IMG/VR virus record: IMGVR_UViG_3300047352_000276
Span: 1-54,994 of that record
Source: a virus
Taxonomy: Duplodnaviria; Caudoviricetes
Length of the DNA stretch: 54,994 bases
Reading direction: 5' to 3' (one strand)
Below the pieces are notes generated by a model. The model made no database searches and was not told the origin of the DNA. It saw nothing but the letters and a program-made list of their open reading frames with translations. Made by a program: the position numbers and the translations under genes. Shown one piece after another: positions 1 to 54,994 of this stretch. Position 1 is the first letter of the stretch. Each line of letters opens with the position of its first letter.

Positions 1-155
1 ATCGCCAACACTTCCGGACCAATCATCTCGACCATACCAATGCCAGTGTTGATGAAGATCGTCGGTTGGGACGAGATCCCAGACTTTCCCAAGCAAAAAA
101 TATACACCATCCGCGCAACCATTGACCAGCCGGACTGCGATATATACCAGACCAT
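1..155. repeat. Terminal direct repeat, copy 1 (circular overlap)
   Basis: 1-155 matches 54840-54994; first 126 nt identical, then 3 mismatches (cag/aaa, tac/tat). Confidence 0.95.
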
Positions 156-549
156 TTATTACCCAGACCCGACAGTCCCACACTACAGAGTTTCAGTCAT
201 CGGCAATGTCGTGATCTGTGAGGCTGCTGTGCCAATAGACTCAAAGCCAGCACCCCACATAATGAGCATACTGATGGATGACTTCGGGTTCAGACCTATG
301 AAGATAACCAACATCACCTCATCGACTCAAGAGTACGGCAAGATTCGTCCGATCGATGAGCGTCTGCGGAAAGAATTCATTTTCCAAATGACCACCCAAC
401 ACAACATCTATTCAGTTGGCAGGTTCGCAACATGGCGACAGATCTTACTGGACGATGTAGTCGACGATGTAAAAGTTGTCGAAGAATTCATTCGGGGGAA
501 GTCTGACTATGCCCGATGGATGCACTCTCAGAAAGGAGAAAATCAATGA
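1..549 (+). CDS. FAD-dependent oxidoreductase/mutase-like flavoprotein, 3' part
   Basis: In frame with the 54450 start via the overlap; IISTIPMP and C-terminal VGRFATWRQILLDDVV resemble UDP-galactopyranose mutase-type flavoproteins. Confidence 0.75.
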   Translation: MANTSGPIISTIPMPVLMKIVGWDEIPDFPKQKIYTIRATIDQPDCDIYQTIYYPDPTVPHYRVSVIGNVVICEAAVPIDSKPAPHIMSILMDDFGFRPMKITNITSSTQEYGKIRPIDERLRKEFIFQMTTQHNIYSVGRFATWRQILLDDVVDDVKVVEEFIRGKSDYARWMHSQKGENQ

Positions 550-1193
550 AAGTGGAACTCGTAAATTATACCTCTGACGCTGTTGACCTGCTGTTGTTCA
601 CCAAGAACACAAGGCTGATGGACGACGAGGATGCCTATGGCAAAATCGCTGGATGGTCTGAAACAAAGAAGCAGGAGGAGCTAGACTACATGCTCCAAAC
701 AATCCGCTCATCTTGGGAATTCATTGACTACACATTCAACATTCGAGATGTCAGTCGTGGGTTCACCCATCAGTTCGTCCGGACTCGCCAAGCCTCATAC
801 GCCCAACAATCTCAACGAACAGTTGACATGTTTGGCTTCAGCTATTACACTCCAGAGCGCATTGAGCAAAACCACGAAGCTCTGGAAGAATATGACAAGG
901 CAATGGCTGACATAGCTGACGCATACCAAAGGCTCCGGAAGTTTGTCCCCGCAGAAGATGCACGTGGTGTCTTGCCGACTAACATCCACACCAACATCGT
1001 CGCGAAGTTTAACTTGCGCACACTGAGCGAGATGGCCAAGTCACGCCTCAGCCCACGAGCTCAAGGTGAATATCAACAGGTGTTCAAGCTGATGGTCAAG
1101 GCTGTTGTCGCGGTGCACCCATGGGCTGATCCTTTCTTGACCCCAACACAGTGGGCCGCACCATCAATGGGAAAGGCTCTGAACAAGCCATGA
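546..1193 (+). CDS. thyX: Flavin-dependent thymidylate synthase ThyX-like protein (divergent)
   Basis: SRGFTHQFVRTRQASYAQQSQR (RxR-X7-S-x-R), AEDARGVLP, NLRTL, AQGEY; ATG 546 overlaps the upstream stop, RBS AGAAAGGAG. Confidence 0.85.
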   Translation: MKVELVNYTSDAVDLLLFTKNTRLMDDEDAYGKIAGWSETKKQEELDYMLQTIRSSWEFIDYTFNIRDVSRGFTHQFVRTRQASYAQQSQRTVDMFGFSYYTPERIEQNHEALEEYDKAMADIADAYQRLRKFVPAEDARGVLPTNIHTNIVAKFNLRTLSEMAKSRLSPRAQGEYQQVFKLMVKAVVAVHPWADPFLTPTQWAAPSMGKALNKP

Positions 1194-1465
1194 GCAAGAA
1201 ATATGAAGATGATCTGATAATCGCTGTGCGGGAAAACAAGAAGCACATGACCGTCAAAGAGATCATGGAGAAGCACAGCCTGAAGGAGCATGAAGTCAAG
1301 TACATCCTTTATAATCCTCATTGCACGTTGCTGGAGGACAAACCAATACCTGTGGACTACGTTGTTGATGATGCTGCGTTTGAGGAGCCTGAAGACTTCC
1401 AAAAAGACGAACGGTCAATAGTCAATGGCTTCAGGAAAGCATTTAAAGGATTATTCGAAAAGTAA
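1190..1465 (+). CDS. Hypothetical protein (possible N-terminal HTH)
   Basis: ATGA overlap with the thyX stop; MTVKEIMEKHSLKEHEVKYILY is HTH-like. Confidence 0.6.
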   Translation: MSKKYEDDLIIAVRENKKHMTVKEIMEKHSLKEHEVKYILYNPHCTLLEDKPIPVDYVVDDAAFEEPEDFQKDERSIVNGFRKAFKGLFEK

Positions 1466-1490
1466 GGATCGTGCTGAGAAAGGAAATGGC

Positions 1491-1979
1491 ATGAATATTT
1501 TCTACCTAGACCACAACCCTGTGGAAGCTGCAAAGATGCATTGCGACAAGCATTGCGTCAAAATGATCCTTGAGACTGCGCAGCTGCTGTGCACTGCTCA
1601 CAGAGAGCTCGATGGTGACTACTGGGCTGACATGGTTGGCTTGTATAAGTCTACCCACAAGAACCATCCGTCTGCTGTTTGGGTGCGCGAGAGCTCTGCG
1701 CAATATTGGTGGGCTTGCGGATTGTATGTCCAGCTTGGTTTGGAATACACAAGACGATACGGCAAGACCCACAAGAGCATGGGTCTGGCTCCATTCTTGA
1801 CAATTTCACCAATGTGGATTGATCGTCTGGCTTGGCGAGAACCGCCTCAGTGCATGCCTGATGAATACAAAACTGACTGCACTGTGGAAGCATACAGGAA
1901 TTATTACAATGGTGCCAAGGCAAGGTTCGCAGCTTGGAAAGACAAGGAGGCTCCAGAATGGTTCGAGACGGTGCAGTGA
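1491..1979 (+). CDS. Pyrimidine-dimer DNA glycosylase/endonuclease V (DenV)-like protein
   Basis: MNIFYLD...CDKHCVKMILETAQLL, THKNHPSAVW, PQCMPDEYK, VEAYRNYY; RBS GAGAAAGGA. Confidence 0.8.
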   Translation: MNIFYLDHNPVEAAKMHCDKHCVKMILETAQLLCTAHRELDGDYWADMVGLYKSTHKNHPSAVWVRESSAQYWWACGLYVQLGLEYTRRYGKTHKSMGLAPFLTISPMWIDRLAWREPPQCMPDEYKTDCTVEAYRNYYNGAKARFAAWKDKEAPEWFETVQ

Positions 1980-2392
1980 TTGTTGACATTGATGGGACGC
2001 TGGCTGATTGTCGTCACAGATTCCATTTGTATGAAGCGAAAGATTATGAAGCATTCAATGCAGCCAGCAAGGATGATGATCCGATTGATGCTGTTGTTGA
2101 TTTGGTGCGCAATCTGCCTAAGTGGACTTGGATTGTAATAATGACCGCTCGGGACGAATCATTCAGAGACGTGACCATGAGTTGGCTCAACATGAATGAC
2201 ATCCCATTCAACCATCTGTTGATGAGGCCAGCAGGTGACAAGCGCAGAGACGACATTGTCAAGCGAGAATTGTTCAATGCCAACTACAAAAAAGAACAAG
2301 TCTGGTTTGCTCTGGAAGACCGCAAAGTCTGCGTTGACATGTGGAGAGATGAGGGCATAACTTGCCTGCAGGTTCAGGAGGGGAATTTCTGA
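1958..2392 (+). CDS. HAD-family phosphatase (like the phosphatase domain of T4 PNKP)
   Basis: DIDGTLAD, TAR, LLMRPAGDKRRDDIVK, EDR..CVDMWR..G; RBS AGGAGG. Confidence 0.85.
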   Translation: MVRDGAVIVDIDGTLADCRHRFHLYEAKDYEAFNAASKDDDPIDAVVDLVRNLPKWTWIVIMTARDESFRDVTMSWLNMNDIPFNHLLMRPAGDKRRDDIVKRELFNANYKKEQVWFALEDRKVCVDMWRDEGITCLQVQEGNF

Positions 2393-2580
2393 TGGAACTT
2401 AGATTGGTCGGCAACGACATTGAATTTGACAGGCAAAAAATTGCAAGGCTTTTTGACCTCAGCCCTGCCCTGCGGATGTCTCTGGAGGAGGCTTTCAAGA
2501 AGTCCAACGAGCACGACGAATCCGTCGATGCAGCATACCAAGAAGGGAGGGCCGAAGGTGAATGGTGGCGTGTCGAATGA
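2392..2580 (+). CDS. Hypothetical protein
   Basis: TGATG-coupled to the upstream gene and ATGA-coupled to the downstream gene. Confidence 0.6.
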   Translation: MELRLVGNDIEFDRQKIARLFDLSPALRMSLEEAFKKSNEHDESVDAAYQEGRAEGEWWRVE

Positions 2581-2873
2581 GCAGTCCTAAAGATCCATCA
2601 GACATTCTGCAAGAGATGGCAGAAACATTCCGAGAGCGGAATAAAGTCTACGGCGACAACTACAAGACCGTCGGAGAAGTGATGATCAGTTTGTTCCCCA
2701 ATGGGGTGCAGCTCAACACAGTCAGCGATTACAACAGCTGGCATCTGTTTGAGTTGATGATCGTCAAGATCACTAGGTTCGCAAACAGCAACCTGAAACA
2801 CAAAGACTCAATTCATGATGCAGCCGTTTATGCGGCCATGGTTGAATATCTCATCAAGGAGGAGAAACAGTGA
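2577..2873 (+). CDS. Nmad1/DUF1599/DUF6378-like protein (nucleotide-modification-associated, MazG-like helical fold)
   Basis: ERNKVYGDNY...MIVKITR...KDSIHDAAVYAAM pattern. Confidence 0.65.
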   Translation: MSSPKDPSDILQEMAETFRERNKVYGDNYKTVGEVMISLFPNGVQLNTVSDYNSWHLFELMIVKITRFANSNLKHKDSIHDAAVYAAMVEYLIKEEKQ

Positions 2874-3547
2874 GCAACATTTTAATCACAGGCACAGGCA
2901 AAGGCTTGGGCAAGGCAATGAAAGAAAAGCTGATCAGCCAAGGCCACAAAGTGATCAGCTTCAATCTTGAGGATGGCAGGGATGTCCGCAGTCCAGACAT
3001 TTCTGACGTCTGGCGTCAGAAAATTGACGTGTTGATAAACAATGCTGGCGTCAACATAATCGATTGGCTGGAAAACTTCGAGGAATCAGACTGGGACAAA
3101 GTCATGGACACCAACGCCAAAGGCATCTACATGATGACCAAGGCTTGCTTGCCAGGACTGATCAAAAGCAAAGGCACAGTCATCAACATCGTAAGCAATG
3201 CAGCCCACATGCCTATGACTTGTTCTTTGGCCTACAATGCGTCCAAAGGTGCTGCCCACATCATGACGTTGCAGATGGCCAGAGAGCTGACCAAGAAGCA
3301 TGGCATAACAGTTTTTGGGATAGCCCCTAACAAACTCTCTGGCACTGGCATGAGTGATGACATCGACAACCAAGTGGTTGCCACTCGTGGCTGGACCAAA
3401 GAGCATGCCCAGCAGTATCAACTCAATGGTCTGTTGACAGGCGAAGAAACGCCACCAGAAAGGCTGGCAGAATTTGTCGCTTTTTTACTTCAATCAAAAG
3501 ATCACCACAAGTACCTGACTGGGTGCATCCTTCCATATGGAGCCTGA
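2870..3547 (+). CDS. Short-chain dehydrogenase/reductase (SDR)
   Basis: TGTGKGLG cofactor motif, NNAG, catalytic Ser and YNASK. Confidence 0.92.
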   Translation: MSNILITGTGKGLGKAMKEKLISQGHKVISFNLEDGRDVRSPDISDVWRQKIDVLINNAGVNIIDWLENFEESDWDKVMDTNAKGIYMMTKACLPGLIKSKGTVINIVSNAAHMPMTCSLAYNASKGAAHIMTLQMARELTKKHGITVFGIAPNKLSGTGMSDDIDNQVVATRGWTKEHAQQYQLNGLLTGEETPPERLAEFVAFLLQSKDHHKYLTGCILPYGA

Positions 3548-3548
3548 A

Positions 3549-4028
3549 ATGAAATTCCAAATTGAACAAATAGCAATCGTCCCGAAAGATCCAATCGCAG
3601 CCAAGAAGCTGTTGTCAGAGATTGGGGCAACTGATTGGGCTGAAGATCACGTTGTCGCAACTGGCAATGTTTTCGGCGTTCGCGACACCAACGAAGCTGA
3701 CTTGTCTTTCAACTATGACCTGTTCTCCGGCAAAGAGTTTGAAGTTTTGGATTATACTTCTGGCCCCAACTGGATTGATTCAAGAGGATCAAGGAACACA
3801 GTCAGCCACCTAGGGATGCATTGCAGTGCAGAAGATCTTGTGCATTGGCGAGCGTTCTTCGCAAACCGTGACATCGAAGTGGCGCAAGAAGTTTTCACCG
3901 ACTCCCACACCAATCCCGTGATTGCAGGAAAACGATCTTACAATTACGTCATATTCGACACGAAGAACATACTGGGCGTTGACCTCAAATTCATCGTTAG
4001 GATAAATAAAGATGCTGATAGTCTTTGA
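3549..4028 (+). CDS. VOC/glyoxalase-fold protein (epimerase-like)
   Basis: IEQIAIV...EFEVLDY..GPNW...SHLGMH pattern resembles methylmalonyl-CoA epimerase-type VOC proteins. Confidence 0.6.
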   Translation: MKFQIEQIAIVPKDPIAAKKLLSEIGATDWAEDHVVATGNVFGVRDTNEADLSFNYDLFSGKEFEVLDYTSGPNWIDSRGSRNTVSHLGMHCSAEDLVHWRAFFANRDIEVAQEVFTDSHTNPVIAGKRSYNYVIFDTKNILGVDLKFIVRINKDADSL

Positions 4029-4548
4029 TCTAGAAACCACAGGTCTGCCCAAAGCGGAAGGTTCTGATCTTGACATGCAGCCCAAGATTATTGAATTCGG
4101 TGCGATCAAGCTTACTGAAGAGCTCATTGAGGTTGATCGCCTTGAATTCTTTTGCAACCCCAAGCACATGCTCGATCCAAAGATCACCAAGATCACAGGC
4201 ATAACAGACGACATGCTCAAAGACCAAAAGCCATTCATCGCACACCTCGACAGATTGAATGAATTCTTTTTGGGAACCAAGCGGATGTTTGCCCACAATC
4301 TTGGCTTCGACAGAAAGATCTTGAAATTTGAGCTTGAGAGGCTAGACAAGGTCACAAGCTTCCCTTGGCCTTATGAGCACACCTGCACAGTTGAGGTTGG
4401 CCAGCGAGTCTGGGGTAAGATGCGCAAGCTGGGCGACATATATGAAGAGCTCTTCGAAGAGAAGATAGAAGGCTCTCACAGGTCAATGAATGATGTTGAA
4501 GCAACGCTCCGGATCATTGATTGGTACGCAAAGGAAGGACACATATAA
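4012..4548 (+). CDS. dnaQ: DEDDh 3'-5' exonuclease (DnaQ/Pol III epsilon-like)
   Basis: FDLETTG, AHNLGFD, HRSMNDV motifs; directly upstream of dnaE. Confidence 0.88.
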   Translation: MLIVFDLETTGLPKAEGSDLDMQPKIIEFGAIKLTEELIEVDRLEFFCNPKHMLDPKITKITGITDDMLKDQKPFIAHLDRLNEFFLGTKRMFAHNLGFDRKILKFELERLDKVTSFPWPYEHTCTVEVGQRVWGKMRKLGDIYEELFEEKIEGSHRSMNDVEATLRIIDWYAKEGHI

Positions 4549-7362
4549 ATGTTGAACCTCAAGACACGCACAGAGTATTCGTTCCGCAAGGCATACGGCC
4601 CCATACAAAAGGTTGTTGAGTGTTTTGAAGACAAGGCTGTTGGAATATGCGACACAGGAACATGGGGCCACGTCGCATTCTCCAAGCACTGCAAAAAGTC
4701 TGGCATCAAGCCTGTGTTTGGTGTTGAGATATCTGTGGTCTTAGATGCCAATGACCGTTCCAAACAAGCCGACAATCCGATGTCATTTCTGGCTTGCAAC
4801 AATGATGGGTTGGCTGAGATATATGAGCTTGTGTCCCGCAGCACATCCAAAGAGAATTTCTACTATTATCCCCGCATAAGCTATTCAGACCTGTTCGATG
4901 TCAGCGAAAACGTGATAATGTTGTCCGGATCGCACCCAGACTGGTCGATGCTTCCTTTGACCAAAAAACACAATCTTTACGTCGAGCTTGGACCAATGAG
5001 CTCTCCGAAGTCAGCTGAGTGGGCTGCTCAAAAAGGCTTCAAGACCATAGCCACCAGCGACAACTTTTATCCCAAGCCATCGGACAAAAAGGCTTACGAG
5101 GTTTTGTGTGGCCGTAACCGTACAGATCGCAGTGGGCCCATGCACATTCTTGATGAGTGGGAGTGGAAGGCTGCTGTGCCTTGGGGGACGCAAGAAGCCA
5201 TCGACAACACCTACAAAGTTGCAGAGCTTTGCAATGCTGATCTGCCAGTTGCGCAGATGATCGCATTTCATTCAAAAAAGACTTTGCGAGAGCTTTGCGA
5301 GGATGGTGCTCCGGCACTGGGCGTTGACCTGAAAGATCCAGTTTATGCGGCTAGGCTCAAGCGAGAGTTGGACATGATTGCCAGCAAGGAATTTGAGGAT
5401 TATTTCTTTGTGATTGCTGACATGATTCGTTACGCCAAAGAGCACATGCTGGTTGGCCCTGCTCGTGGATCTTCTGCTGGTTCTTTGGTTTGTTACCTCA
5501 CTGGCATAACTGACGTTGACCCGATTGTGCACGACCTGTTGTTCGAAAGATTCATCGACATCACCCGAGAAGATCTGCCGGACATCGACATCGACTTTCA
5601 AGATGACCGCAGAGAGATGGTTTTCCAATATCTCAGGGACAAGTACGGTGCAGAAAAAGTTGCACACCTCGGGACGGTCAGCCGCTACAAAGCCAAGAGC
5701 ACAATAGCAGAAGTGGCCAAAGAGCTTGGCATACCCGCATGGGAAGTCAATGACCTGAAAGGTGCGATCATCGAGCGCAGTGGTGGTGACTCTCGTGCTG
5801 CGTTCTGCATCCTCGACACATTCAACGACCTCGACATAGGCAAGGCTGTCTTGGAGAAATTCCCGCAGATGAAAGTTGCGGCAAAGATGGAGAACCACGC
5901 AAGACACGTTGGTGTGCATGCTGCTGGCATTCTGGTGACTGAAGACCCAGTCAGCAAATATTGCTCCGTCAGTGCGCAGACTGGTGCGGCCCAGATAGAC
6001 AAAAAAGACGCTGAAGACCTCAACCTGCTGAAGATTGATGCATTGGGCCTCAGAACACTCTCCGTCTTGCAGGACGTTTTGGATCAGGTTGGTTGGGTGC
6101 GAGACCAGCTGATCAAGTTTCCTCTGGAAGACAAAAAGGCATTCGCAATATTGAATGATGAGAAATATGCAGGCATATTCCAATTTGAAGGCTACGCGCT
6201 GCAAGGTGTGACCAGACAAATGAAAGTGCACAACTTTGAGGACGTTGCAGCCATCACTGCCCTAGCTCGTCCTGGACCACTCAACTCCGGTGGTACGAGC
6301 CAGTTTATCAAGCGGCACATAGGAGCAGCACCAGCGGAATATATGCACCCAATGACAGAGCCAATCACAAAGGTGACTCATGGTGTTGTGGTCTATCAAG
6401 AACAAGTCATGACCATTGGTCGGGAGATAGGCAAGCTGAGTTGGGAAGATGTTTCATTCCTGCGCAAAGCAATGAGCAAGTCTTATGGCAAAGAATATTT
6501 TGACACGTTCTGGGAGAAGTTCAAGGTTGGAGCTGCTGAGAACGGCATACCGGAAGACGTCGCGCAAACAATATGGGACAACATCAACACGATGGGATCT
6601 TGGGCGTTCAACCGCAGTCACGCAATATCTTACGGGATGGTGAGCTATTGGTGTTGTGTCTTGAAGAGCAGGTTCCCACTGGAGTATGCTGCTGCTTGCC
6701 TCCGTAATGTCAAGGATGACGACCAAGCTGTCAAGCTGTTGAGGGAAGTTGTGTCTGAGGGATTGACTTACAAGCCATTCGACAAATTCAAGTCCAAGGC
6801 CAACTGGTCAGTCCAAGACAATGAATTGATCGGTGGGTTGATAGGGATCAAAGGCATCGGCCCCAAAATGGCAGAAGACATAGAAAACAGGCGCAACCTG
6901 TCCCAACCATTGACCCCACGGCAAGAAACCCTGCTGAACACAGGCACGACACCCTATGACGATATTTTTGAGTGCGAAAGGAGATTTGGCCACATCAAGA
7001 AAGATCCCAAAGCCCACAACATCGGCTCAGCCATAACAGACATCCAAGACCTAGACGGGGACAATCCAGGAACATTCGTTTTCTTCGGCAAGCTCAAAGA
7101 GAAGAATTTGAGGGATATGAATGAAGCTGTCAACTTGGCCAAACGTGGTGGTCGCAGAGTTGATCGGAATAACCTTTGGTTGAACGTGACAGCTGAAGAT
7201 GACACTGGCGCAATCATATGCACAGTCGACAGGTTCAAGTACCAAAAGATGGGCAAGCCCATTGTGGAGGATGGAAAGCTGGGTGAATGGTACTTATTCA
7301 AAGGTGTGTTGAAGAATGGGTTCAGGAAGATCTATCTTGAAAAGGTTCGTAAGATGTTGTAA
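4549..7362 (+). CDS. dnaE: DNA polymerase III alpha subunit (family C)
   Basis: PHP-like N-terminus, GPARGSSAGSLV, LLFERF, PDIDIDF, HAAG, KIDALGL, FNRSHA, C-terminal OB fold (EDDTG). Confidence 0.95.
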   Translation: MLNLKTRTEYSFRKAYGPIQKVVECFEDKAVGICDTGTWGHVAFSKHCKKSGIKPVFGVEISVVLDANDRSKQADNPMSFLACNNDGLAEIYELVSRSTSKENFYYYPRISYSDLFDVSENVIMLSGSHPDWSMLPLTKKHNLYVELGPMSSPKSAEWAAQKGFKTIATSDNFYPKPSDKKAYEVLCGRNRTDRSGPMHILDEWEWKAAVPWGTQEAIDNTYKVAELCNADLPVAQMIAFHSKKTLRELCEDGAPALGVDLKDPVYAARLKRELDMIASKEFEDYFFVIADMIRYAKEHMLVGPARGSSAGSLVCYLTGITDVDPIVHDLLFERFIDITREDLPDIDIDFQDDRREMVFQYLRDKYGAEKVAHLGTVSRYKAKSTIAEVAKELGIPAWEVNDLKGAIIERSGGDSRAAFCILDTFNDLDIGKAVLEKFPQMKVAAKMENHARHVGVHAAGILVTEDPVSKYCSVSAQTGAAQIDKKDAEDLNLLKIDALGLRTLSVLQDVLDQVGWVRDQLIKFPLEDKKAFAILNDEKYAGIFQFEGYALQGVTRQMKVHNFEDVAAITALARPGPLNSGGTSQFIKRHIGAAPAEYMHPMTEPITKVTHGVVVYQEQVMTIGREIGKLSWEDVSFLRKAMSKSYGKEYFDTFWEKFKVGAAENGIPEDVAQTIWDNINTMGSWAFNRSHAISYGMVSYWCCVLKSRFPLEYAAACLRNVKDDDQAVKLLREVVSEGLTYKPFDKFKSKANWSVQDNELIGGLIGIKGIGPKMAEDIENRRNLSQPLTPRQETLLNTGTTPYDDIFECERRFGHIKKDPKAHNIGSAITDIQDLDGDNPGTFVFFGKLKEKNLRDMNEAVNLAKRGGRRVDRNNLWLNVTAEDDTGAIICTVDRFKYQKMGKPIVEDGKLGEWYLFKGVLKNGFRKIYLEKVRKML

Positions 7363-7434
7363 ATGTTGAGAGAAAAATTATTTCACTCAAAATTGAAAAT
7401 AATGATTGCCTTTTCTGGCAATAACGACGATACT
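7349..7434 (+). promoter_or_regulatory. Sigma70-like promoter P1 with upstream conserved boxes
   Basis: TTGCCT(7406)-17 nt-GATACT(7429); 7370-7397 is 25/28 identical to 53534-53561. Confidence 0.75.
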
Positions 7435-7483
7435 CTCTTTATCGGAAGGGAGAGGCCCTGACGGTTTGAGAAAGGAACTAACG

Positions 7484-7771
7484 ATGGAACTTACAAACAA
7501 CCAGACCCGAGCGATGACTGCTCTTATCAAAAGTTGCCTCGGCAACATGGGCGGCAAAACCCTTGCTGATTTGCAAGACGACCCATTCACATGGGTTGAT
7601 GCCTCTGATCTCGTTGAAGCTGGCTGGGGCCAAAAAGAAGCTGAAGGCACATTCGGCTCACTGGTCGCTGCTGATTTAGTTTATCTTTATGACCAGCGTT
7701 CGGCCGACGATGGGGGCAACTTATATTCGCTGGCTGATGACTGGGATTCTCTCCGTAAATTTCACTCATAA
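7484..7771 (+). CDS. Hypothetical early protein (winged-helix-like)
   Basis: RBS TGAGAAAGGA, ATG 7484, directly after P1. Confidence 0.7.
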   Translation: MELTNNQTRAMTALIKSCLGNMGGKTLADLQDDPFTWVDASDLVEAGWGQKEAEGTFGSLVAADLVYLYDQRSADDGGNLYSLADDWDSLRKFHS

Positions 7772-7777
7772 TCTAAC

Positions 7778-7797
7778 GGTGGGGCTTCGGCCCCACC
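7778..7797 (+). other. GC-rich hairpin with C(UUCG)G tetraloop
   Basis: GGTGGGGC-TTCG-GCCCCACC perfect 8-bp stem; no adjacent U-tract. Confidence 0.75.
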
Positions 7798-7801
7798 ACC
7801 T

Positions 7802-8079
7802 CCTCAAATTTTAGAAAGGAACCAGCAAGTGACAACGATCAATGAAGCAAAAGCCAAGGCAAGGCACATCAAATATCATGTGCGCCAGCGCTTCCTAGAG
7901 CAGGAGCGGGAGGCTTATTATAATTACAGGAGCGAAAGTCGCGCTTGTGGTTATGAGGTCGAGAGCTTTGAAGAGTACATTGGCGATAGGAACTTGAAAG
8001 ACGAATTTGCTGAGTTTTACGCCAGCCTGACCGAACAAGAATTGTCACAATATTAACCAACCCTCAAATTTTAGAAAGG
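7802..8079 (+). repeat. 18-nt direct repeat CCTCAAATTTTAGAAAGG (7802-7819, 8062-8079), includes RBS
   Basis: Exact duplicate upstream of two consecutive genes. Confidence 0.85.
7829..8056 (+). CDS. Hypothetical protein
   Basis: GTG start after AGAAAGGA RBS. Confidence 0.65.
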   Translation: MTTINEAKAKARHIKYHVRQRFLEQEREAYYNYRSESRACGYEVESFEEYIGDRNLKDEFAEFYASLTEQELSQY

Positions 8080-8086
8080 CACTATC

Positions 8087-8575
8087 ATGAACAAGCACAC
8101 TCCATCTCAACGCCCGATCACCGACTGGGTCGGCAAGCAGCGCATCACATGGTGTGGCCCATACGCCATCGCCGTTCTTTGTGGTGTGGCCTATGAGCCT
8201 GCATACCAAGCTGCCAAGCTAGTGCGCGGCAAACGCCACGCAAAAGGCATCACCAACTCCAACCTGAGAGCTGCGTGCCGGATGTTCGGTGTGAACGGCA
8301 AGTGGAAGTCTCTCGAGAAGCGCACCAAGCTCTCAAAATTCCTGCCGACACTTGAGGCTGGCAAAGTCTACGTGATCCAGATCACCAAGCATTTCCTCGT
8401 GGTCGACACTCGTGACTTCACCACCATCGATAATCAAAACCGTGAGTGGATCGCAATGGACGCGACCAAGCACAAAAACAAGTTGGTGCACAACGTGTTC
8501 GAAGTCACCAACCCCAAATTCGACGCTGAGGATGATCCTTGGTTGATCGAGCCTCTGGCTGCTTCTGGAGCCTGA
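8087..8575 (+). CDS. Putative papain-fold (C39-like) cysteine peptidase
   Basis: Q...WCGPYAIA, KHFLVVD, DN give a Cys-His-Asp arrangement. Confidence 0.5.
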   Translation: MNKHTPSQRPITDWVGKQRITWCGPYAIAVLCGVAYEPAYQAAKLVRGKRHAKGITNSNLRAACRMFGVNGKWKSLEKRTKLSKFLPTLEAGKVYVIQITKHFLVVDTRDFTTIDNQNREWIAMDATKHKNKLVHNVFEVTNPKFDAEDDPWLIEPLAASGA

Positions 8576-8636
8576 GCCCAATCCCTGAGCATGGATTCAA
8601 ACTGCTCATTAAACTTCAAACTGAGAAAGAAATATA

Positions 8637-9197
8637 ATGACAACACCAATCGAAGAAACTCAAGAGCTGCACGTCTTGATCGAGTCGGTCTCGCAGCAGC
8701 ATAATTGTTTTGGCGTCACCCAAGAAGGTGAGACAATTTTCATCGGCAACCGCATCGGCAAATTCCTCAACCTCGACATCGGGGATCAGGTTCTGGCGCA
8801 TGCTTTGCCTAACTACGAAAATCACGCGAGCCGCATTGATTGGCGTGCTGTGCGTTGCGTCAAAATCTCTGAAACGCCTTCTGCTTCTTTGCCCAAAGAA
8901 GACGATCGTCCTGTCAACGCAACTGTTGTTGCCAAGCACGGTGCCACCCAGATCCAAAGCAACATCATCGACATCCTGCGTGCGCAAGAAAATTACTTGA
9001 CGACAGGGGAATGTGATGAGGCTTATTATGAAGCGCACCCCAATCAAAAAGACAGGCTCCACCGCTCCGAGGTCAGCAATGCCTTGGCCAAGGCTCACCA
9101 ATATGGTCGTGTGGTCAGGGCAGGAGTGATGGCCAGCTCAGGCAACGAGAAGGCTTCATTGGTGCTTTGGGCCAGTGACGTGAATAAATTTAAATAG
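8637..9197 (+). CDS. Hypothetical protein
   Basis: 186-aa ORF with RBS TGAGAAAG. Confidence 0.7.
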   Translation: MTTPIEETQELHVLIESVSQQHNCFGVTQEGETIFIGNRIGKFLNLDIGDQVLAHALPNYENHASRIDWRAVRCVKISETPSASLPKEDDRPVNATVVAKHGATQIQSNIIDILRAQENYLTTGECDEAYYEAHPNQKDRLHRSEVSNALAKAHQYGRVVRAGVMASSGNEKASLVLWASDVNKFK

Positions 9198-9295: not shown

Positions 9296-10063
9296 ATGCA
9301 AATCGGTTGGACTGATCATGACAAAGACCTCTACATGTCACTCAAAGGCTGCGTCAACAAAGGTGGATATTTCTCCTCTGTTGGCCAAATGAATTATATG
9401 GCTCGCGTTGTGGGCCACAACTCTTATGCCAAAGACGGTGAGAGCCACTGGGATGACAGCGTTCCATCCGCAGTTGGCCAGAGCATCGTGATCCTTGAAG
9501 CTCCGATCATCGTTGAGTATGCAGGATCAACCCCATGGGCCCAAGGCACAACTGGTTGGGGTCGTCGCAGTCGTGACTTCTGCAGAGCATTCGTTGTTGA
9601 CGCTGTTGGTGTGGTGGCTATGTACAAGATCCACCGCTCTTACGATGATTCAACTGGGCGGTCTTGGCCTAACCCCAAGCGCACTGAGGTGATCTTCGAG
9701 CGTGACAATTCTATGGCTGCTGAGAAGCTCGCTGAGTTGACAGTTGTGAACGACGCCAAAGCCAAAGCAATCGCGGAGGAAAAAGCTGCTTCCAATTTCA
9801 TCGGGGAAGTTGGTGATCGCCTAGACTTCCAAGGCACAGCACGTCTCGTCTGGAGAGGTGAGAATCAGTGGGGCACAACATACATCTACCTCATCAAGAC
9901 CCAAGACGGCAACACCATCAAATACATGGGCAAGTGGCTTGGTGAAGGTGAGAGCTTTCCAATCAGCTTCAAAGCAACCGTCAAGAAGCACGAAGAATAC
10001 AATGGCGAGAAGCAGACCGTTGTCAACCGTCCAATGAAAATTCAAGTGGGGGAGCTGGCATGA
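9296..10063 (+). CDS. Hypothetical protein with C-terminal OB-fold-like domain
   Basis: FIGEVGDR...ATVKKHEEYNGEKQTVVNRP; ATG after RBS. Confidence 0.65.
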   Translation: MQIGWTDHDKDLYMSLKGCVNKGGYFSSVGQMNYMARVVGHNSYAKDGESHWDDSVPSAVGQSIVILEAPIIVEYAGSTPWAQGTTGWGRRSRDFCRAFVVDAVGVVAMYKIHRSYDDSTGRSWPNPKRTEVIFERDNSMAAEKLAELTVVNDAKAKAIAEEKAASNFIGEVGDRLDFQGTARLVWRGENQWGTTYIYLIKTQDGNTIKYMGKWLGEGESFPISFKATVKKHEEYNGEKQTVVNRPMKIQVGELA

Positions 10064-10347
10064 TCCCCTGCCCAGAGTGTGAGCACACAGGCCACAAAGG
10101 CAAAGTTGAAAAGACTTTGTACCAGCGTTTCGGTGGGACGCTGGAGCCTGTTGGTGAGTGGGTTGATTGTGAGGATTGCAATGGCTCCGGAGAAGTCGAA
10201 TGCGACGAGGACAACTGCGTTGATGGTTGGATTGAGGACGAGCGTCCGGAGAGTTGTGGCGGTGGACCCAGAGAGCATTTCCACTGGGTGATGTATCGTG
10301 ACCCATGCCCAAAGTGCAAGCCAGATGAGGAAGAAGACGATGGGTGA
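10060..10347 (+). CDS. DnaJ-type zinc-finger protein
   Basis: CPEC, CEDCNGSG, C...CVDG, CPKC. Confidence 0.65.
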   Translation: MIPCPECEHTGHKGKVEKTLYQRFGGTLEPVGEWVDCEDCNGSGEVECDEDNCVDGWIEDERPESCGGGPREHFHWVMYRDPCPKCKPDEEEDDG

Positions 10348-10525
10348 ATATGATTGCTGCAATTGCGGGGAGGCTTTCCACCTGCACGAGCCACCATTTG
10401 ATGGCTCTGAGATTTGCGATCCTTGCCGTGAATCTTACAGATCTAGTCTGGCTGAAATGCTAGACAATCCTCTGGAGACTTTGGCCAAGTTGAACCTGCG
10501 AGGAGACAACCATGTGGGCAACTGA
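10340..10525 (+). CDS. Small zinc-finger protein
   Basis: CCNCGE...ICDPC; ATG 10340 after GAGGA. Confidence 0.55.
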   Translation: MGEYDCCNCGEAFHLHEPPFDGSEICDPCRESYRSSLAEMLDNPLETLAKLNLRGDNHVGN

Positions 10526-10670
10526 AATAATCAAAATTGGCGAGGGAATAAAGCGTGTGGTGGAATATAAAGACATGACATATTTCGCAGCTATGAACAG
10601 TCACAACTATTACATGATGAGATATGTTGGCGACTACAAAACTTATTTTGTTTGGAGGGAACCACAATGA
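10512..10670 (+). CDS. Hypothetical protein (52 aa)
   Basis: Read manually: MWATEIIKIGEG..., RBS AGGAG, stop overlaps the next start. Confidence 0.5.
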   Translation: MWATEIIKIGEGIKRVVEYKDMTYFAAMNSHNYYMMRYVGDYKTYFVWREPQ

Positions 10671-11095
10671 TTGCGGAACTTTGCTTGTCGTTAGCTCTTT
10701 ATCACGAGGCTCGTGGAGAGCCACTCAACGGTCAAAGAGCTGTTGCTGAGGTCATAATGAATAGGGTTGAGTCTGATCGCTTCCCTGACACCATTTGTGG
10801 CGTTGTCATGCAACCTAATCAATTCAGCTTCGTCAGCCCCAATGGTTGGGCTGGAATTCCGACAGACGGTGACTTGTGGGCTGATGCAGAAATGTTCGCT
10901 CAAGATGCCATATTCAATCACAAGACTGGTGAGAAATATTGGGGTGGATATTATTACCACTACCATGCCACTAGCGTTTCGCCTGTTTGGGCTGAAGAGA
11001 TGTATCCTGCCATGACGATAGGGAACCATGTGTTCTATTCTGACAACCTAACCAAGCCAAAGAAAGTGAGGCCAAAATTACGACCATGGAAATAG
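10667..11095 (+). CDS. SleB-like cell wall hydrolase (Hydrolase_2)
   Basis: CLSLALYHEARGE, VAEVIMNRV, FPDTICGVV.QP.QFS, YHATSVSPVW, IGNHVFY. Confidence 0.9.
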   Translation: MIAELCLSLALYHEARGEPLNGQRAVAEVIMNRVESDRFPDTICGVVMQPNQFSFVSPNGWAGIPTDGDLWADAEMFAQDAIFNHKTGEKYWGGYYYHYHATSVSPVWAEEMYPAMTIGNHVFYSDNLTKPKKVRPKLRPWK

Positions 11096-12774
11096 ACAAA
11101 GCTCATGGCAGGTTCTGCCTAGCCAAAGTCAAGCTAGATGGTGATGCTATCCAGAAATTGGCGGCATTGCCAGGATTCAAGAAGTGGGTTGGCAGGGACT
11201 TGTTGTTTGCGCCAACTGGAGCCAACATAAGCCACATCAACAAGCATTGGCCTAGGGCGGTGTGGTCGGAGGCTGCTTCGCCCATCCTAGACGATTATAT
11301 TGAGACAATGCATCAAGCTGAATTGACTCGCAAAGAAAAGGCTTCAGCTCCGAAAGATCTGGGTGACTTCCTTTTCAAAACCAAGCCATTCGATCACCAG
11401 CGCAAAGCATTTTACATGAGTCGGGACAAAGAGTCTTTCGCTTTGCTCATGGAGCAGGGCACAGGCAAAACCAAAGTCATAATCGACAATGCTGCGTATC
11501 TTTATGCTTCTGGTGAGATAACTGCGTTGGTCGTCATTGCGCCCAATGGGGTGCACCGCAACTGGCTCAACAAAGAGATCCCCGACCACATGCCAGAGTG
11601 GTGCAACCACTCGTCGGCATATTATTATTCGGGGATGAAGTCCAGAGACAAAACCAAGTTTGACGACATATTATCTGGGCAAGATGAACTGAAGATATTT
11701 TCATTCAATGTTGAGGCTTTTGTAAGCCAAACAGCTGTGGCATTGATGAACAAGATCCTCCTGAGCAACAAGGTTCTTTTGGTGGTGGACGAAAGCTCTC
11801 GGATCAAACGTCCAGGAGCCAAGCGCACCAAAACAATCCACAAGTTTGCCAAACAAGCCAAGTATCGCAGGATCATGACAGGCACACCAGTGACCAAAGG
11901 CCCAGAGGACGTGTACAGCCAATTCAGGTTTCTCGATCCTTATATCCTCGGGTACGACAGCTTTTATTCTTTCAGGGCAAGATATTGCGTCATGGGAGGC
12001 TACGAGAACAAACAGATCGTTTCTTATCAATATATGGACGAGCTGACCAAAAGCATTGAAGGCCACTCGTTCCGAGTTTTGAAAAAAGATTGCTTGGACT
12101 TGCCGGACAAAATATATCAACGTCACTTTGTTGATCTTTCGCCAAAGCAGCGCAAGTTGTATGATTCGCTGAAAAAAGACTTCGTGGTTGAGTTGGAAGG
12201 TGACGTAATAGACGCACAGGAGGCCATAACAAGGCTGCTACGACTGCAACAGATAGTTTGTGGGTGGTTTCCTGCCGAAGAGAAAGCAAGACCCATAGAC
12301 GACAAGAATCCTAGGCTTGAGGCTCTGAAGGATTTGCTGGGCAACATCGATGCCAAGGTGATAATCTGGGCACGCTTCCGAGCCGACATAGCGCAGATCG
12401 AACGGATGTTGGGCCATAAGGCTGTGAGCTACCATGGTGGCGTGTCGAATGACATGAGAGCCAAAGCTGTTGACAGCTTTCAGAATGATCCTAGTGTGCG
12501 TTACTTCATCGGCCAACCTCAATCGGGGGGGATTGGCTTGACGCTGACAGCTGCGTCTTATGCGATATATTATTCCAACAGCTTCGACTTGGAAACAAGG
12601 CTTCAGTCGGAAGACAGGTGCCACCGCATAGGCACAACCCAAAACGTAACATACATCGACATCGAGAGTCCCAAGACCATTGACTCAAAGATCATCAAAG
12701 CTCTGCGGGACAAAAAGAACCTAGCAGATGTTGTGACCAAAGATCCGATGTCTTTTTTCTTGTCGGAGGAGTGA
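11086..12774 (+). CDS. SNF2-family (SF2) helicase
   Basis: MEQGTGKT, DESS, TGTP, GGIGLTL, QSEDRCHRIG. Confidence 0.92.
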   Translation: MEIDKAHGRFCLAKVKLDGDAIQKLAALPGFKKWVGRDLLFAPTGANISHINKHWPRAVWSEAASPILDDYIETMHQAELTRKEKASAPKDLGDFLFKTKPFDHQRKAFYMSRDKESFALLMEQGTGKTKVIIDNAAYLYASGEITALVVIAPNGVHRNWLNKEIPDHMPEWCNHSSAYYYSGMKSRDKTKFDDILSGQDELKIFSFNVEAFVSQTAVALMNKILLSNKVLLVVDESSRIKRPGAKRTKTIHKFAKQAKYRRIMTGTPVTKGPEDVYSQFRFLDPYILGYDSFYSFRARYCVMGGYENKQIVSYQYMDELTKSIEGHSFRVLKKDCLDLPDKIYQRHFVDLSPKQRKLYDSLKKDFVVELEGDVIDAQEAITRLLRLQQIVCGWFPAEEKARPIDDKNPRLEALKDLLGNIDAKVIIWARFRADIAQIERMLGHKAVSYHGGVSNDMRAKAVDSFQNDPSVRYFIGQPQSGGIGLTLTAASYAIYYSNSFDLETRLQSEDRCHRIGTTQNVTYIDIESPKTIDSKIIKALRDKKNLADVVTKDPMSFFLSEE

Positions 12775-12968
12775 TGCATCATGAAATTATGACTGTAGAT
12801 AAAACAACGGCGAACGTCAAAGAAGCCTTAAATGCAATCTACAGGGCGCAGCTAGAATTGCTTGATACAGGAGAATTTACTAATAAAACTCTTGACGAAG
12901 CCTTTAAGAATTTGACAGGCGGGAGGATTAAGCTGGAAAAATGGATCAAGGAGAATAATGATGAGTGA
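12771..12968 (+). CDS. Hypothetical protein
   Basis: Overlap-coupled on both sides. Confidence 0.55.
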   Translation: MMHHEIMTVDKTTANVKEALNAIYRAQLELLDTGEFTNKTLDEAFKNLTGGRIKLEKWIKENNDE

Positions 12969-13371: not shown

Positions 13372-13637
13372 AATCCACCTTTCAGCCCATCAAGAATCTC
13401 ATTTAGGGTTGGGCGTTTGTCTTTCTTTTCATAAACGCAACTGAAAACTTTAGGACACTCAGAGAAACTTTGGGTTGGGTAATGATACCCCAGCCCACCG
13501 AAACCTGCGGTGAATCGGTATACACAGATTTTCTGGTCTGTATTTGGATCTGTTATTCTTTTCCAAAGGTGACATTGAACGTGTGTCGGGTTGGCGACTC
13601 CTGCCAACGCCACAGAAACAATCAAACTCGCTAACAT
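13368..13637 (-). CDS. Hypothetical Cys-containing protein with signal-like N-terminus
   Basis: Hydrophobic N-terminus, 4 Cys; last gene of the - arm, converging with the + arm. Confidence 0.6.
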   Translation of the reverse strand: MLASLIVSVALAGVANPTHVQCHLWKRITDPNTDQKICVYRFTAGFGGLGYHYPTQSFSECPKVFSCVYEKKDKRPTLNEILDGLKGGF

Positions 13638-48290: not shown

Positions 48291-48296
48291 CACTCT

Positions 48297-48659: not shown

Positions 48660-48660
48660 C

Positions 48661-49251: not shown

Positions 49252-49255
49252 TCTT

Positions 49256-53512: not shown

Positions 53513-53598
53513 GTAAGCTCTTGGAAACATTGGGAGAAAAATTATTTTCATCAAAATTGAATTTTTTTGTTGCCTTCTCCTGCGACATCAGCGATACT
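53513..53598 (+). promoter_or_regulatory. Sigma70-like promoter P4 with upstream conserved boxes (drives the operon across the junction)
   Basis: TTGCCT(53570)-17 nt-GATACT(53593); upstream box shared with P1. Confidence 0.75.
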
Positions 53599-53626: not shown

Positions 53627-54280
53627 ATGAACAACCCAACCTTCGCCCTCGACATCAAATCTCTCGTCGTCAAAGCCTACGTCAGCAGCAAAGTTGCACG
53701 GTCACAAGGCAACGGCGCGATCATCTTCACCTCTGCTGAAGAGCTGCTGGCTGACCGCAACATCACAGGCAAGATCCTTGTGGACGCTTTCAATGAAGTC
53801 TCCCTCAAGACTGTCAAAAAGTTTTCCGACAACAAGACTGCTGCTCGTCGTTACATGGCTGCGATTGGTGGCCTGCACGTCGACCCCACAGGTTGCTGGG
53901 ACACTGGCTGGGACGTGCCCACCTCCAAGCCAACCCCACAGGTCGCTGCACTCCCAGGAATGACACCACTCGGTCTCCCTGCAGACAAGTCAGCGCCAGC
54001 CATCAAAGGTGCTCTCTCCGAGATTGTCGTCACAACCACTGACATCACCCCACCAATGCCAACCAAGGCTCGCGGTGCATTCGCTGGCAAGACAATCCGC
54101 GTGATTGAGCTTGACAATCCTCGCAAGGAAGGCACTCGTGCCCACAAGACATATAGCCTTTACGTCTCTGGTGGCAGCTACGAAGATCTGGTTGCGAACG
54201 CTGCTGGCTGGAGCACCAAAGGTGGCGTCAGAGAAGATGTTGCCCATGACATTAAAAAAGGACGCATCGAGCTGATATGA
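53627..54280 (+). CDS. Hypothetical protein
   Basis: ATG after TGAGAAAGGA; C-terminal NPRKEGT.A...Y...D..KGRI domain. Confidence 0.7.
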   Translation: MNNPTFALDIKSLVVKAYVSSKVARSQGNGAIIFTSAEELLADRNITGKILVDAFNEVSLKTVKKFSDNKTAARRYMAAIGGLHVDPTGCWDTGWDVPTSKPTPQVAALPGMTPLGLPADKSAPAIKGALSEIVVTTTDITPPMPTKARGAFAGKTIRVIELDNPRKEGTRAHKTYSLYVSGGSYEDLVANAAGWSTKGGVREDVAHDIKKGRIELI

Positions 54281-54450
54281 CCTGCAAAGATTGCTATAAG
54301 CCAAAACTCAACGAGCAGGAGATTCGCCTCTTGCTCGTTGCGCTTGATGCTTGTATATTCCCGATTGAGCAATCCGTGCCACAAGCAATAACAACCCATG
54401 CAGCGGCCAAGAGAGCCGAACGCAAACTCAGGAAGATGTTGGAGGAATAA
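54277..54450 (+). CDS. Hypothetical protein (57 aa)
   Basis: Read manually; ATGA overlap upstream and TAATG overlap with the flavoprotein. Confidence 0.55.
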   Translation: MTCKDCYKPKLNEQEIRLLLVALDACIFPIEQSVPQAITTHAAAKRAERKLRKMLEE

Positions 54451-54994
54451 TGGTAGCGATTTATGGAGCAGGTCTGGCAGGATTGCTGGCAGCTAATATG
54501 TTGAGGGGGATGAGCCCAACTGTGTTTGAGGCTCAAGGCTCCCTGCCCAACAACCATGGTGCGCTGTTGCGCTTCCGTAGCGACAAGGCTGGCACAGCTT
54601 GCGGCATCCCTTTCAAGAAGGTGCACGTGACCAAAGCAATCAAGTACGACGGCAAGATCACCACTGAGCCAAACCTGTTCCTGAGCAACATGTATTCCCA
54701 AAAGGTCACAGGCTCAATCATGAGCCGATCCATCAACAACCTCTCCGCAGCATCACGCTACATTGCCCCATGGCACCTGATCAGGGACATGTCCATGGGC
54801 GCAGAAATATCTTACAACATGAGCTTGTCCGAATACTCAATCGCCAACACTTCCGGACCAATCATCTCGACCATACCAATGCCAGTGTTGATGAAGATCG
54901 TCGGTTGGGACGAGATCCCAGACTTTCCCAAGCAAAAAATATACACCATCCGCGCAACCATTGACAAACCGGACTGCGATATATATCAGACCAT
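54450..54994 (+). CDS. FAD-dependent oxidoreductase/mutase-like flavoprotein, 5' part (continues at 1-549; ~312 aa in total)
   Basis: Not in the ORF track. ATG at 54450 after GGAGG; MVAIYGAGLAGLLAA...VFEA is a GxGxxG Rossmann motif; frame stays open into the terminal repeat. Confidence 0.85.
   Translation, partial: MVAIYGAGLAGLLAANMLRGMSPTVFEAQGSLPNNHGALLRFRSDKAGTACGIPFKKVHVTKAIKYDGKITTEPNLFLSNMYSQKVTGSIMSRSINNLSAASRYIAPWHLIRDMSMGAEISYNMSLSEYSIANTSGPIISTIPMPVLMKIVGWDEIPDFPKQKIYTIRATIDKPDCDIYQT
54840..54994. repeat. Terminal direct repeat, copy 2 (circular overlap)
   Basis: Matches 1-155; lies inside a reading frame that continues across the junction. Confidence 0.95.

Follow-up and report, generated by a model that had tools for sequence, protein, structure and literature searches.

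A predicted enzyme module beside the DnaQ-DnaE replicase of tailed phages, its exchangeable DUF6378-SDR-VOC cassette and a possible link to hypermodified thymidine

We analyzed IMG/VR record IMGVR_UViG_3300047352_000276 (Duplodnaviria; Caudoviricetes), a complete virus record of 54,994 bp from an uncultured marine phage, which is referred to below as the window, and describe a string of 14 genes on its + strand. The string starts at a promoter-like box at 53570, crosses the junction of the record ends and extends to position 7362. Its genes overlap or abut at their stop and start codons, and the last two encode a DnaQ-like exonuclease and DnaE. This coupled, nearly gapless arrangement from the promoter-like box (P4) to DnaE had been described in the initial annotation of the window, and direct reading of the junctions bears it out. 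The genes central to this study are as follows.

54450..54994, + strand: N-terminal part of a FAD protein resembling UDP-galactopyranose mutase (UGM); phrog_4828, 2.4e-35
1..549, + strand: C-terminal part of the UGM-like FAD protein, with a GRFATWRQ..LLDDV motif; phrog_4828, 6e-36
546..1193, + strand: ThyX with variant motifs (RTR-x7-S-x-R-T); Pfam PF02511 Thy1, TIGR02170
1958..2392, + strand: HAD phosphatase of the PNKP type (PF25109) with a DIDGT motif; HAD_PNKP 109.9 bits against a cut-off of 27.6, phrog_415
2577..2873, + strand: DUF6378 helical protein of subtype A (WHLFEL motif), first cassette gene; phrog_4889, 1.1e-30
2870..3547, + strand: classical SDR, second cassette gene; adh_short 1.7e-35, motifs TGTGKGLG, NNAG and S..YNASK
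3537..4028, + strand: g163, VOC-fold protein, third cassette gene; structure model, Foldseek match 3gm5
4012..4548, + strand: DEDDh 3′-5′ exonuclease (DnaQ-like); RNase_T 3e-27
4549..7362, + strand: DnaE-type DNA polymerase III alpha; four Pfam domains, including PF07733 (9.4e-70), the finger domain (2.1e-38) and PHP (2.1e-14)

The RNase_T exonuclease adjoins a Pol III alpha protein with PHP, core and finger domains, and the two are regarded here as a DnaQ-DnaE replicase. Pfam profile matches agree with the HAD, SDR, exonuclease and DnaE assignments made initially.

A distant DNA search revealed pieces of the string in 209 phage records. Wifcevirus Bas101 (E. coli), Carpasina (Xanthomonas) and Aeromonas phage Gekk3-15 share the order helicase, an unknown protein of about 300 aa, flavoprotein, ThyX, HAD-DUF6378 (fused), SDR, VOC, exonuclease and DnaE, and the module also occurs in Serratia phages. 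Pbunaviruses JG024, F8 and 14-1 have flavoprotein, ThyX, HAD-DUF6378, exonuclease and DnaE, with no SDR or VOC. Vibrio phage PVA7 has flavoprotein-ThyX-HAD-exonuclease-DnaE, and a Rhizobium jumbo phage carries the flavoprotein near ThyX. In Microbacterium Krampusvirus Sparcetus the genes for the SDR, the VOC protein and a DUF6378-containing protein immediately precede DnaE, and a ThyX-like gene lies at a distance of a few kb. Separately, DnaE of Sparcetus (9335-14129) is annotated as two coding sequences split by a small open reading frame (ORF), and a glycosyltransferase gene lies directly 3′ of it.

With tblastn the VOC protein was found in 55 phage records, none of them from Pseudomonas phages, and the flavoprotein in 362, of which 292 were from Pseudomonas phages. 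The novelty claimed initially therefore holds for the pathway, which is uncharacterised, and does not hold for the genes. A large protein collection contained 2,226 relatives of the flavoprotein, 922 of the VOC protein and 317 of DUF6378 at E ≤1e-3, none informatively named. Judged from these comparisons, the string constitutes an enzyme module restricted to phages and accompanying the DnaQ-DnaE replicase, and its predicted core consists of the UGM-like FAD protein, the variant ThyX, the PNKP-type HAD and the DUF6378/Nmad1-like protein. The presence of SDR-VOC-DUF6378 beside DnaE in Microbacterium Krampusvirus too indicates that the module is old and retained.

The composition of the module was compared among marine relatives. 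IMG/VR contained 161 relatives of the window ThyX, and the best 80 of the 161 loci were searched with the window proteins (tblastn); the 63 loci containing both DUF6378 and the exonuclease were treated as informative. The flavoprotein accompanies ThyX in 79 of the 80 marine loci, the single exception being a locus with only 246 nt ahead of ThyX. Between DUF6378 and the exonuclease, SDR and VOC were either both present (20 of 63 loci) or both absent (43 of 63); neither was ever found alone (0 of 63). The initial annotation had made its proposal dependent on co-occurrence of these enzymes with ThyX and DnaE in related genomes. Such co-occurrence is observed for the flavoprotein in 79 of the 80 loci, and for SDR and VOC in 20 of the 63 informative ones as well as in Wifcevirus, Carpasinavirus and an Aeromonas phage, and beside DnaE in Krampusvirus.

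Presence of the SDR and VOC genes is linked to the type of DUF6378 protein. The identity of DUF6378 to the window protein is 74-100% in the 20 cassette-bearing loci and 38-49% in the 43 cassette-free ones; when the eight near-identical loci L005-L012 are left out, the values are 81.1% (13 cassette loci) and 44.6% (42 cassette-free loci). In the same 13 versus 42 comparison the means for the flavoprotein, HAD, exonuclease, DnaE and UvrD are less than 4 points apart, and those for ThyX about 5 points. DnaE, for instance, shares 75.0% identity with the window protein in cassette-bearing and 76.1% in cassette-free relatives. In one near-twin, L008, ThyX is 95-96% and the exonuclease 96% identical to the window proteins, yet its DUF6378 gene (3363-3661) belongs to the other subtype (46% identity), and both SDR and VOC are absent. 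It follows that the three genes were exchanged as a block, and recently. The WH..E motif of subtype A recurs in four SDR/VOC-bearing lineages, namely Bas101, Carpasina (WHLFQL), Sparcetus and Gekk3-15 (YHLFDI), and is missing from the cassette-free marine relatives and from Pbunavirus.

A physical connection between the products was found as well. A profile made from the VOC alignment gave 462 matches at E ≤1e-3 among 1.84 billion representatives, and many of these were proteins of 255-451 aa in which the VOC domain is C-terminal. Ten such fused proteins were scanned: Glyoxalase_4 matched all ten, five of them above the cut-off, and the N-terminal part matched PF07659 in four, one of them above the cut-off. 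The role of PF07659 is taken here from its Pfam description, 'Nucleotide modification associated domain 1'. In all 21 aligned fused proteins the N-terminal domain is helical and has the motifs YGE.RY, YRKFIR and LRD..LD.ANY, paralleling DUF6378. Two viral contigs carry the fusion in module synteny (UvrD, flavoprotein, ThyX, HAD, SDR, fusion, Exo); in L096 DnaE follows the fusion-bearing module, and L090 stops inside Exo. The Nmad1-like N-terminal domain gave a weak match to AF_0060 (E 0.14), which serves as a lead only; AF_0060 we take to have the all-alpha NTP pyrophosphatase fold.

The joint presence or absence of SDR and VOC, their linkage to the DUF6378 subtype and the Nmad1-like-VOC fusion in synteny together argue that DUF6378, SDR and VOC form one exchangeable unit. 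DUF6378-SDR-VOC is accordingly treated here as a cassette whose three genes are acquired, lost or replaced together.

Other genes were observed within the module in individual loci. A cassette-bearing marine relative (L065:13485-14066) has a gene for a 193-aa 2OG-Fe(II) oxygenase (PF13640, 33.4 bits) between exonuclease and DnaE. L096 contains at 5276-5641, between flavoprotein and ThyX, a gene with a SLOG-family YAcAr domain. In L092 the module is interrupted by two HNH homing-endonuclease genes (8504-8941 and 9452-9988).

The flavoprotein gene is split by the ends of the record. Bases 54840-54994 repeat bases 1-155 (155 bp with 3 mismatches, at offsets 127, 129 and 147, one of which alters a flavoprotein residue, K versus Q in IDxPDC), and because of this the gene resumes at base 156. 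With the repeat removed, a single ORF runs in frame from 54450 to 549, as had been stated initially, and encodes 312 aa with an N-terminal GAGLAG; an unsplit 312-aa orthologue is present in IMG/VR locus L007:9096-10034. It appears that the genome is circular or permuted and was assembled from a mixed population, and that the repeat does not represent true terminal repeats.

Structure models of the flavoprotein and of g163 were built from alignments of relatives. The flavoprotein model is nearest to UGMs (VIA Z 21.5, root-mean-square deviation (rmsd) 3.6 over 301 aa; Foldseek E ~1e-10), in agreement with the UGM-like assignment made initially; protoporphyrinogen oxidase (Z 19.4) and MAO (Z 17.8) come next. 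The GxGxxG FAD motif is kept in 6 of 6 aligned lineages and is also what the protein shares with UGMs (4dsh, 1i8t) besides the best structural match; the C-terminal GR..[WY] motif is, on our assumption, comparable with that of UGMs. The likeness has limits: UGMs have 367-510 aa against the 312 aa of the flavoprotein, identity is 12-16%, and protoporphyrinogen oxidases trail UGMs by just 2 Z units. No Pfam match was obtained for the flavoprotein when its two halves were scanned separately.

ThyX scored 137.1 bits with Thy1 (cut-off 24.8) and 101.2 bits with the equivalog model TIGR02170 (cut-off 87.9). It can be aligned with T. maritima ThyX (e.g. 1o26) over residues 53-204, and the dUMP-binding arginines and the serine of the motif are kept. 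The canonical motif we take to be RHR-x7-S, from which the window protein, reading RTR, departs. In T. maritima numbering the substitutions are presumably His53 to Ile, His79 to Thr and Tyr91 to Thr. Threonine at the histidine position of RHR is also present in Wifcevirus and Carpasina ThyX, and Aeromonas Gekk3-15 retains RHR. The description of this protein as a divergent ThyX is therefore correct for the motifs and not for the family score, and ThyX activity is predicted. The notion that such a divergent protein is not a ThyX was rejected, as it passes the equivalog cut-off. Profile searches of the genome gave no match for another thymidylate synthase (ThyA, PF00303), trimeric dUTPase, dCMP deaminase or class I/II ribonucleotide reductase (RNR). 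RNR-independent deoxynucleotide synthesis, considered in view of the last result, was set aside as too speculative.

Between ThyX and the HAD gene lies a further gene for a protein of interest:

1425..1979, + strand: phrog_624 'DNA binding protein' (2.3e-54), a look-alike of the pyrimidine-dimer glycosylase (endonuclease V) family

This protein had been called DenV-like. That description stands for Atlas look-alikes only (feature score 0.95, structure TM 0.85; 53-98% of cluster members carry Pyr_excise); the Pyr_excise profile PF03013 gave no match to it, nor did a PDB sequence search.

Taken together, these enzymes could serve ordinary nucleotide housekeeping. ThyX would make dTMP, DUF6378 would be an all-alpha NTP pyrophosphatase (acting e.g. 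on dUTP or dCTP) that feeds ThyX, HAD would act as a 3′-phosphatase or nucleotidase, the DenV-like protein would repair UV damage, and the flavoprotein and the SDR-VOC pair would be accessory metabolic enzymes that came along with the replicase and have no effect on DNA composition. We consider this a real possibility, short of an even chance and nearly as likely as the DNA-modification reading developed below. It is favoured by the ThyX scores over curated cut-offs and the preserved dUMP-binding arginines, by the lack of ThyA, trimeric dUTPase, dCMP deaminase and class I/II RNR matches in the genome, by the absence of SDR and VOC in Pbunavirus and in 43 of the 63 close relatives, and by the similarity, though weak (E 0.14), between the Nmad1-like domain and AF_0060. 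Nevertheless it leaves four conserved enzymes without a role, and it explains neither the strict linkage of SDR, VOC and DUF6378 subtype nor the Nmad1-VOC fusion, nor the company of the UGM-like flavoprotein and ThyX across Pbunavirus, Wifcevirus, Carpasinavirus and Vibrio phages.

The 2577-2873 protein matched the DUF6378 profile (PF19905) with 23.5 bits, under the cut-off of 27.1, and many of its close homologues are annotated as PF19905. Of the initial label 'Nmad1/DUF6378-like', the DUF6378 half is thus supported by this sub-cut-off match and by phrog_4889, and the Nmad1 half is not, since a six-frame search with the Nmad1 profile PF07659 gave no match in the window at E ≤10. Searching PDB sequences with the DUF6378 profile gave chance-level matches only, and an Atlas search recovered its own family only. 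The SDR has, by sequence, an intact catalytic Ser-Tyr-Lys set. PDB and NCBIfam searches with it were generic and indicated no substrate: the best PDB matches were FabG-like at ~70 bits, and pteridine reductase was one of 205 NCBIfam matches.

The model of g163 (163 aa, pLDDT 93.5) shows the paired beta-alpha-beta-beta-beta fold of VOC proteins, and its closest solved structure is 3gm5 (Foldseek E 1.8e-7; VIA Z 15.5, rmsd 2.3 over 135 aa), in line with the VOC call made initially. Further VIA matches were methylmalonyl-CoA epimerases (Z ~11) and glyoxalase I (Z 10.5). No Pfam match was found for g163 itself, and the narrow VOC profile found nothing in PDB at E 0.1; the broader fused-protein profile reached 3gm5 with E 8.9e-12. 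3gm5 is a structural-genomics VOC protein annotated as a putative methylmalonyl-CoA epimerase, and its identity to g163 is ~16%. Both proteins have Gln in place of the first metal-binding His of the epimerase, and in the fused-protein profile the first metal-ligand position is occupied by Gln and the third by His. Where the fourth ligand would be expected, g163 apparently has Lys, as read from the sequence.

Enzymes of these classes would also suit the synthesis of a small molecule that does not enter DNA, such as a cofactor of the pterin or flavin type serving the variant ThyX, or a host immune-signalling or sugar nucleotide. The pterin version is modelled on the FolX/FolM branch, which combines a pyrophosphatase, a phosphatase, an epimerase and an SDR. 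In favour of such a role, the window ThyX presumably lacks the histidine that stacks on folate, and the cassette is accessory and exchanged in the manner of many counter-defence genes. Family matches lend a pterin role no specific backing, since the SDR is generic, and the early region of the + strand showed neither GTP cyclohydrolase nor any other pterin gene. We regard a small-molecule role as improbable.

Experimental information on DNA composition exists for Pbunavirus. Five restriction enzymes whose recognition sequences include TG (BsgI, FspI, ApaLI, NdeI and BmrI) fail to cut F8 DNA (bioRxiv 10.1101/2025.03.31.646159). The same preprint reports, for F8 and 14-1, novel nucleosides derived from thymidine, with masses of 362 and 390 U, which replace about a quarter of T and occur at TG; the masses would fit a derivative of a tetrose sugar alcohol and a cyclised derivative of an aldopentose, and no biosynthetic gene is assigned to either nucleoside in the available part (bioRxiv 10.1101/2025.03.31.646159). 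Published restriction patterns (Banzai paper) had suggested to us that Pbunavirus DNA is unmodified; this view was rejected, as hypermodified thymidine is reported as measured in F8 and 14-1.

In F8 and 14-1 the homologues of the window proteins stand in the same order, with identities of 33-36% (flavoprotein), 40-41% (ThyX), 37-38% (DUF6378), 34-35% (exonuclease) and about 40% (DnaE). By our own arithmetic, 362 and 390 presumably correspond to 5-hydroxymethyl-deoxyuridine (5-hmdU) plus a tetritol or a pentose, minus water. Between 14-1 (L099) and F8 (L100), whose thymidine adducts differ, the HAD-DUF6378 fusion is the most diverged module enzyme (80.8% identity, with a linker indel), and flavoprotein, ThyX, exonuclease and DnaE are 94-98% identical. 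The case of Pbunavirus thus resembles that of the window in that core-module homologues occur in the same order and the reported sugar-like adducts would suit a UGM-like enzyme. It differs in that SDR and VOC are absent and the proteins are only 33-41% identical to those of the window. The combination of the core module with a measured modification makes a link to DNA modification more plausible. It also bears on the housekeeping explanation, since the reported hypermodification of Pbunavirus DNA must be brought about by some phage genes.

The best single reading, which we put forward tentatively, is that the module helps to make a sugar-type hypermodified thymidine like that of F8 and 14-1. 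The ThyX-type enzyme would perform C5 chemistry on deoxyuridylate; the flavoprotein, the phosphatase and DUF6378 may prepare a small sugar or polyol donor; and the SDR and VOC proteins could oxidise or reduce and epimerise this donor, so that cassette-bearing phages would have a different adduct. At least one step must take place on DNA and be sequence-specific, a requirement which follows from the F8/14-1 mark being TG-specific and confined to about a quarter of T. Observed are the identities of the genes, the folds, the synteny, the linkage within the cassette, the fusion and the occurrence of the core in F8 and 14-1; every chemical step, and the presence of modified DNA in the source phage, we infer. 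Enzyme types known from sugar and small-molecule tailoring, namely the UGM-like flavoprotein, the epimerase-like VOC protein and the SDR with an intact catalytic set, count in favour of the reading. So do the occurrence of the sugar-mutase-like flavoprotein and of a motif-variant ThyX across the lineages, the behaviour of the cassette as a diversifying unit, the age of the module and the lack of profile matches for rival routes in the genome.

Several points weigh against it. The literature search found no paper tying the module genes to a modification by experiment, none measuring the nucleosides of Wifcevirus, Carpasinavirus, Myosmarvirus or Krampusvirus, and no virion DNA data for cassette-bearing relatives. 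The Pbunavirus mark is TG-specific and partial, which a pool enzyme such as ThyX alone cannot explain. General scans recognised no DNA-level transferase, kinase or glycosyltransferase in the string (no profile aimed at a 5-hmdU DNA kinase or transferases was run); the initial annotation had likewise recognised no glycosyltransferase or kinase, and a GT2 profile gave no match. As F8 and 14-1 have no SDR or VOC, the cassette is not needed for their adducts. Since ThyX exceeds the equivalog cut-off, keeps the dUMP arginines and is accompanied by no other matched synthase or dUTPase, an ordinary supply of dTMP fits as well. Conservation of the module could reflect simple co-descent with the replicase. 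Finally, the dUTPase-ThyX-Nmad1 operon of Asgard wyrdviruses is read by its authors as plain thymidylate (dTMP) synthesis (bioRxiv 10.1101/2021.07.29.453957), which favours the housekeeping explanation. That operon likewise links ThyX to an Nmad1-type helical protein, and it is described without flavoprotein, HAD, SDR or VOC (bioRxiv 10.1101/2021.07.29.453957). The window protein, unlike that of the wyrdviruses, matches DUF6378 and not PF07659.

In a strict version of the scheme proposed in the initial annotation, a non-canonical pyrimidine dNTP is made before replication, the canonical dNTP is destroyed and the phage DnaE incorporates the substitute genome-wide. Known thymidine hypermodifications do begin with a thymidylate-synthase homologue acting on the nucleotide pool (PMC8989533), and the module includes a pyrophosphatase-like domain, a phosphatase and a phage-encoded polymerase. 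The proposal is not supported by the other data. In F8 and 14-1 the reported change is partial, affecting about a quarter of T and only in TG, and DnaE identity does not differ between relatives with and without the cassette (75.0% and 76.1%). SDR and VOC are dispensable among near-identical phages with near-identical exonucleases, as L008 shows. No enzyme that would deplete the canonical dNTP was identified, nor was a dNMP kinase or a dTTP- or dCTP-specific hydrolase. As weak evidence, relatives are readily assembled from ordinary metagenomes (161 ThyX relatives in IMG/VR). Full substitution is accordingly the least probable of the explanations considered and very unlikely.

Well-characterised thymidine hypermodifications provide a further comparison. 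In ViI, M6, SP10 and PhiW-14 the pathways rely on a dUMP hydroxymethylase of the ThyA family, on a 5-hmdU DNA kinase and on transferases. The window differs from them: it has no ThyA match, its synthase is of the ThyX type, and no kinase or transferase was recognised. Profile searches for rival routes of modification in the genome likewise gave no match for ThyA, Tet/JBP (PF12851), GT2 (PF00535) or N6/N4 methylases. The likeness lies in a thymidylate-synthase-type enzyme beside phage replication genes (PMC5889632, PMC8989533). Modification in those phages is described as partial, with steps before and after replication (PMC5889632, PMC8989533).

In a more specific form of the hypermodified-thymidine reading, a flavin-based pathway of the ThyX type would decorate thymidine with a sugar or polyol by means of enzymes unlike those of the known hypermodification pathways. 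A His-poor ThyX would activate C5 of deoxyuridylate or thymine, a minimal UGM-like flavoprotein, the phosphatase and the Nmad1-like protein would supply a C4 or C5 sugar, and the DUF6378-SDR-VOC cassette would re-tailor this sugar. In this complete form the scheme is rather unlikely. If it is true, near-identical phages would differ in their DNA adduct and hence in the host nucleases that they escape.

The remaining features of the string are the following.

53570..53598, + strand: putative promoter-like box P4 (TTGCCT, 17 nt, GATACT), which heads the operon; four-copy alignment
53627..54280, + strand: g237, the first gene; no Pfam, PHROG or NCBIfam match, tblastn relatives in 54 of 80 marine loci
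54277..54450, + strand: g57, small Cys-containing ORF without a family match, joined to g237 by ATGA; relatives by tblastn in 22 of 80 loci
1190..1465, + strand: g91, small variable ORF of no family; no Pfam or PHROG match, tblastn relatives in only 8 of 80 loci
2392..2580, + strand: g72, small ORF between HAD and DUF6378; tblastn relatives in 73 of 80 loci

ATGA junctions were read directly at g237/g57, flavoprotein/ThyX, ThyX/g91 and g72/DUF6378. The others are TAATG (g57/flavoprotein), TGATG (HAD/g72), GTGA (DUF6378/SDR), TGAAATG (SDR/VOC) and TAAATG (Exo/DnaE). The start of g237 is likely the ATG at 53627, the alternative TTG at 53567 falling within the promoter box. Copies of this box are located at 53570, 7406 and 9239 on the + strand and at 47921 on the - strand; CGATACT is invariant in all four, and an upstream element, TTGCC(T)/TTTAC(T), precedes it at a spacing of about 17 nt. 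The boxes at 53570 and 7406 additionally have a long AT-rich upstream box in common. A generic sigma-70 scan of 1-8200 performed at chance (9 found, 8.0 +/- 2.6 expected), as did a terminator scan, and for that reason the promoter call rests on the four-copy alignment.

Elsewhere in the window, three consecutive + strand genes at 48228-50059 match the Pfam families Pam3 gp32-like, gp33-like (DUF7307) and gp34-like, and an AEP-type primase gene (50123-51688) lies just downstream. The early + strand block contains at 10652-12774 genes for a cell-wall hydrolase (Hydrolase_2) and a SNF2-type helicase, 3′ of four family-less ORFs.

What is added here is the linkage within the cassette, the Nmad1-VOC fusion in synteny, two folds, and the extension of the module to abundant marine phages and actinophages. 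Hundreds of sequenced phages have the module next to their polymerase, and they range from marine viromes to phages that infect E. coli, Xanthomonas, Serratia and Microbacterium. Members of Pbunavirus rank with the phages most often employed against Pseudomonas aeruginosa; the hypermodification of their DNA was found only recently, with genes unassigned in the available part of the report. BASEL phages compatible with E. coli K-12, whose resistance to restriction is unexplained, have the module as well. Should the modification reading prove wrong, the linked DUF6378-SDR-VOC unit and the ThyX-linked flavoprotein would still stand as conserved phage enzymes of unknown function. If it is true, ThyX- and flavin-based chemistry would join the known routes of DNA hypermodification, the module would explain host-range limits set by modification-dependent nucleases, and the cassette would be a natural means of changing the adduct.

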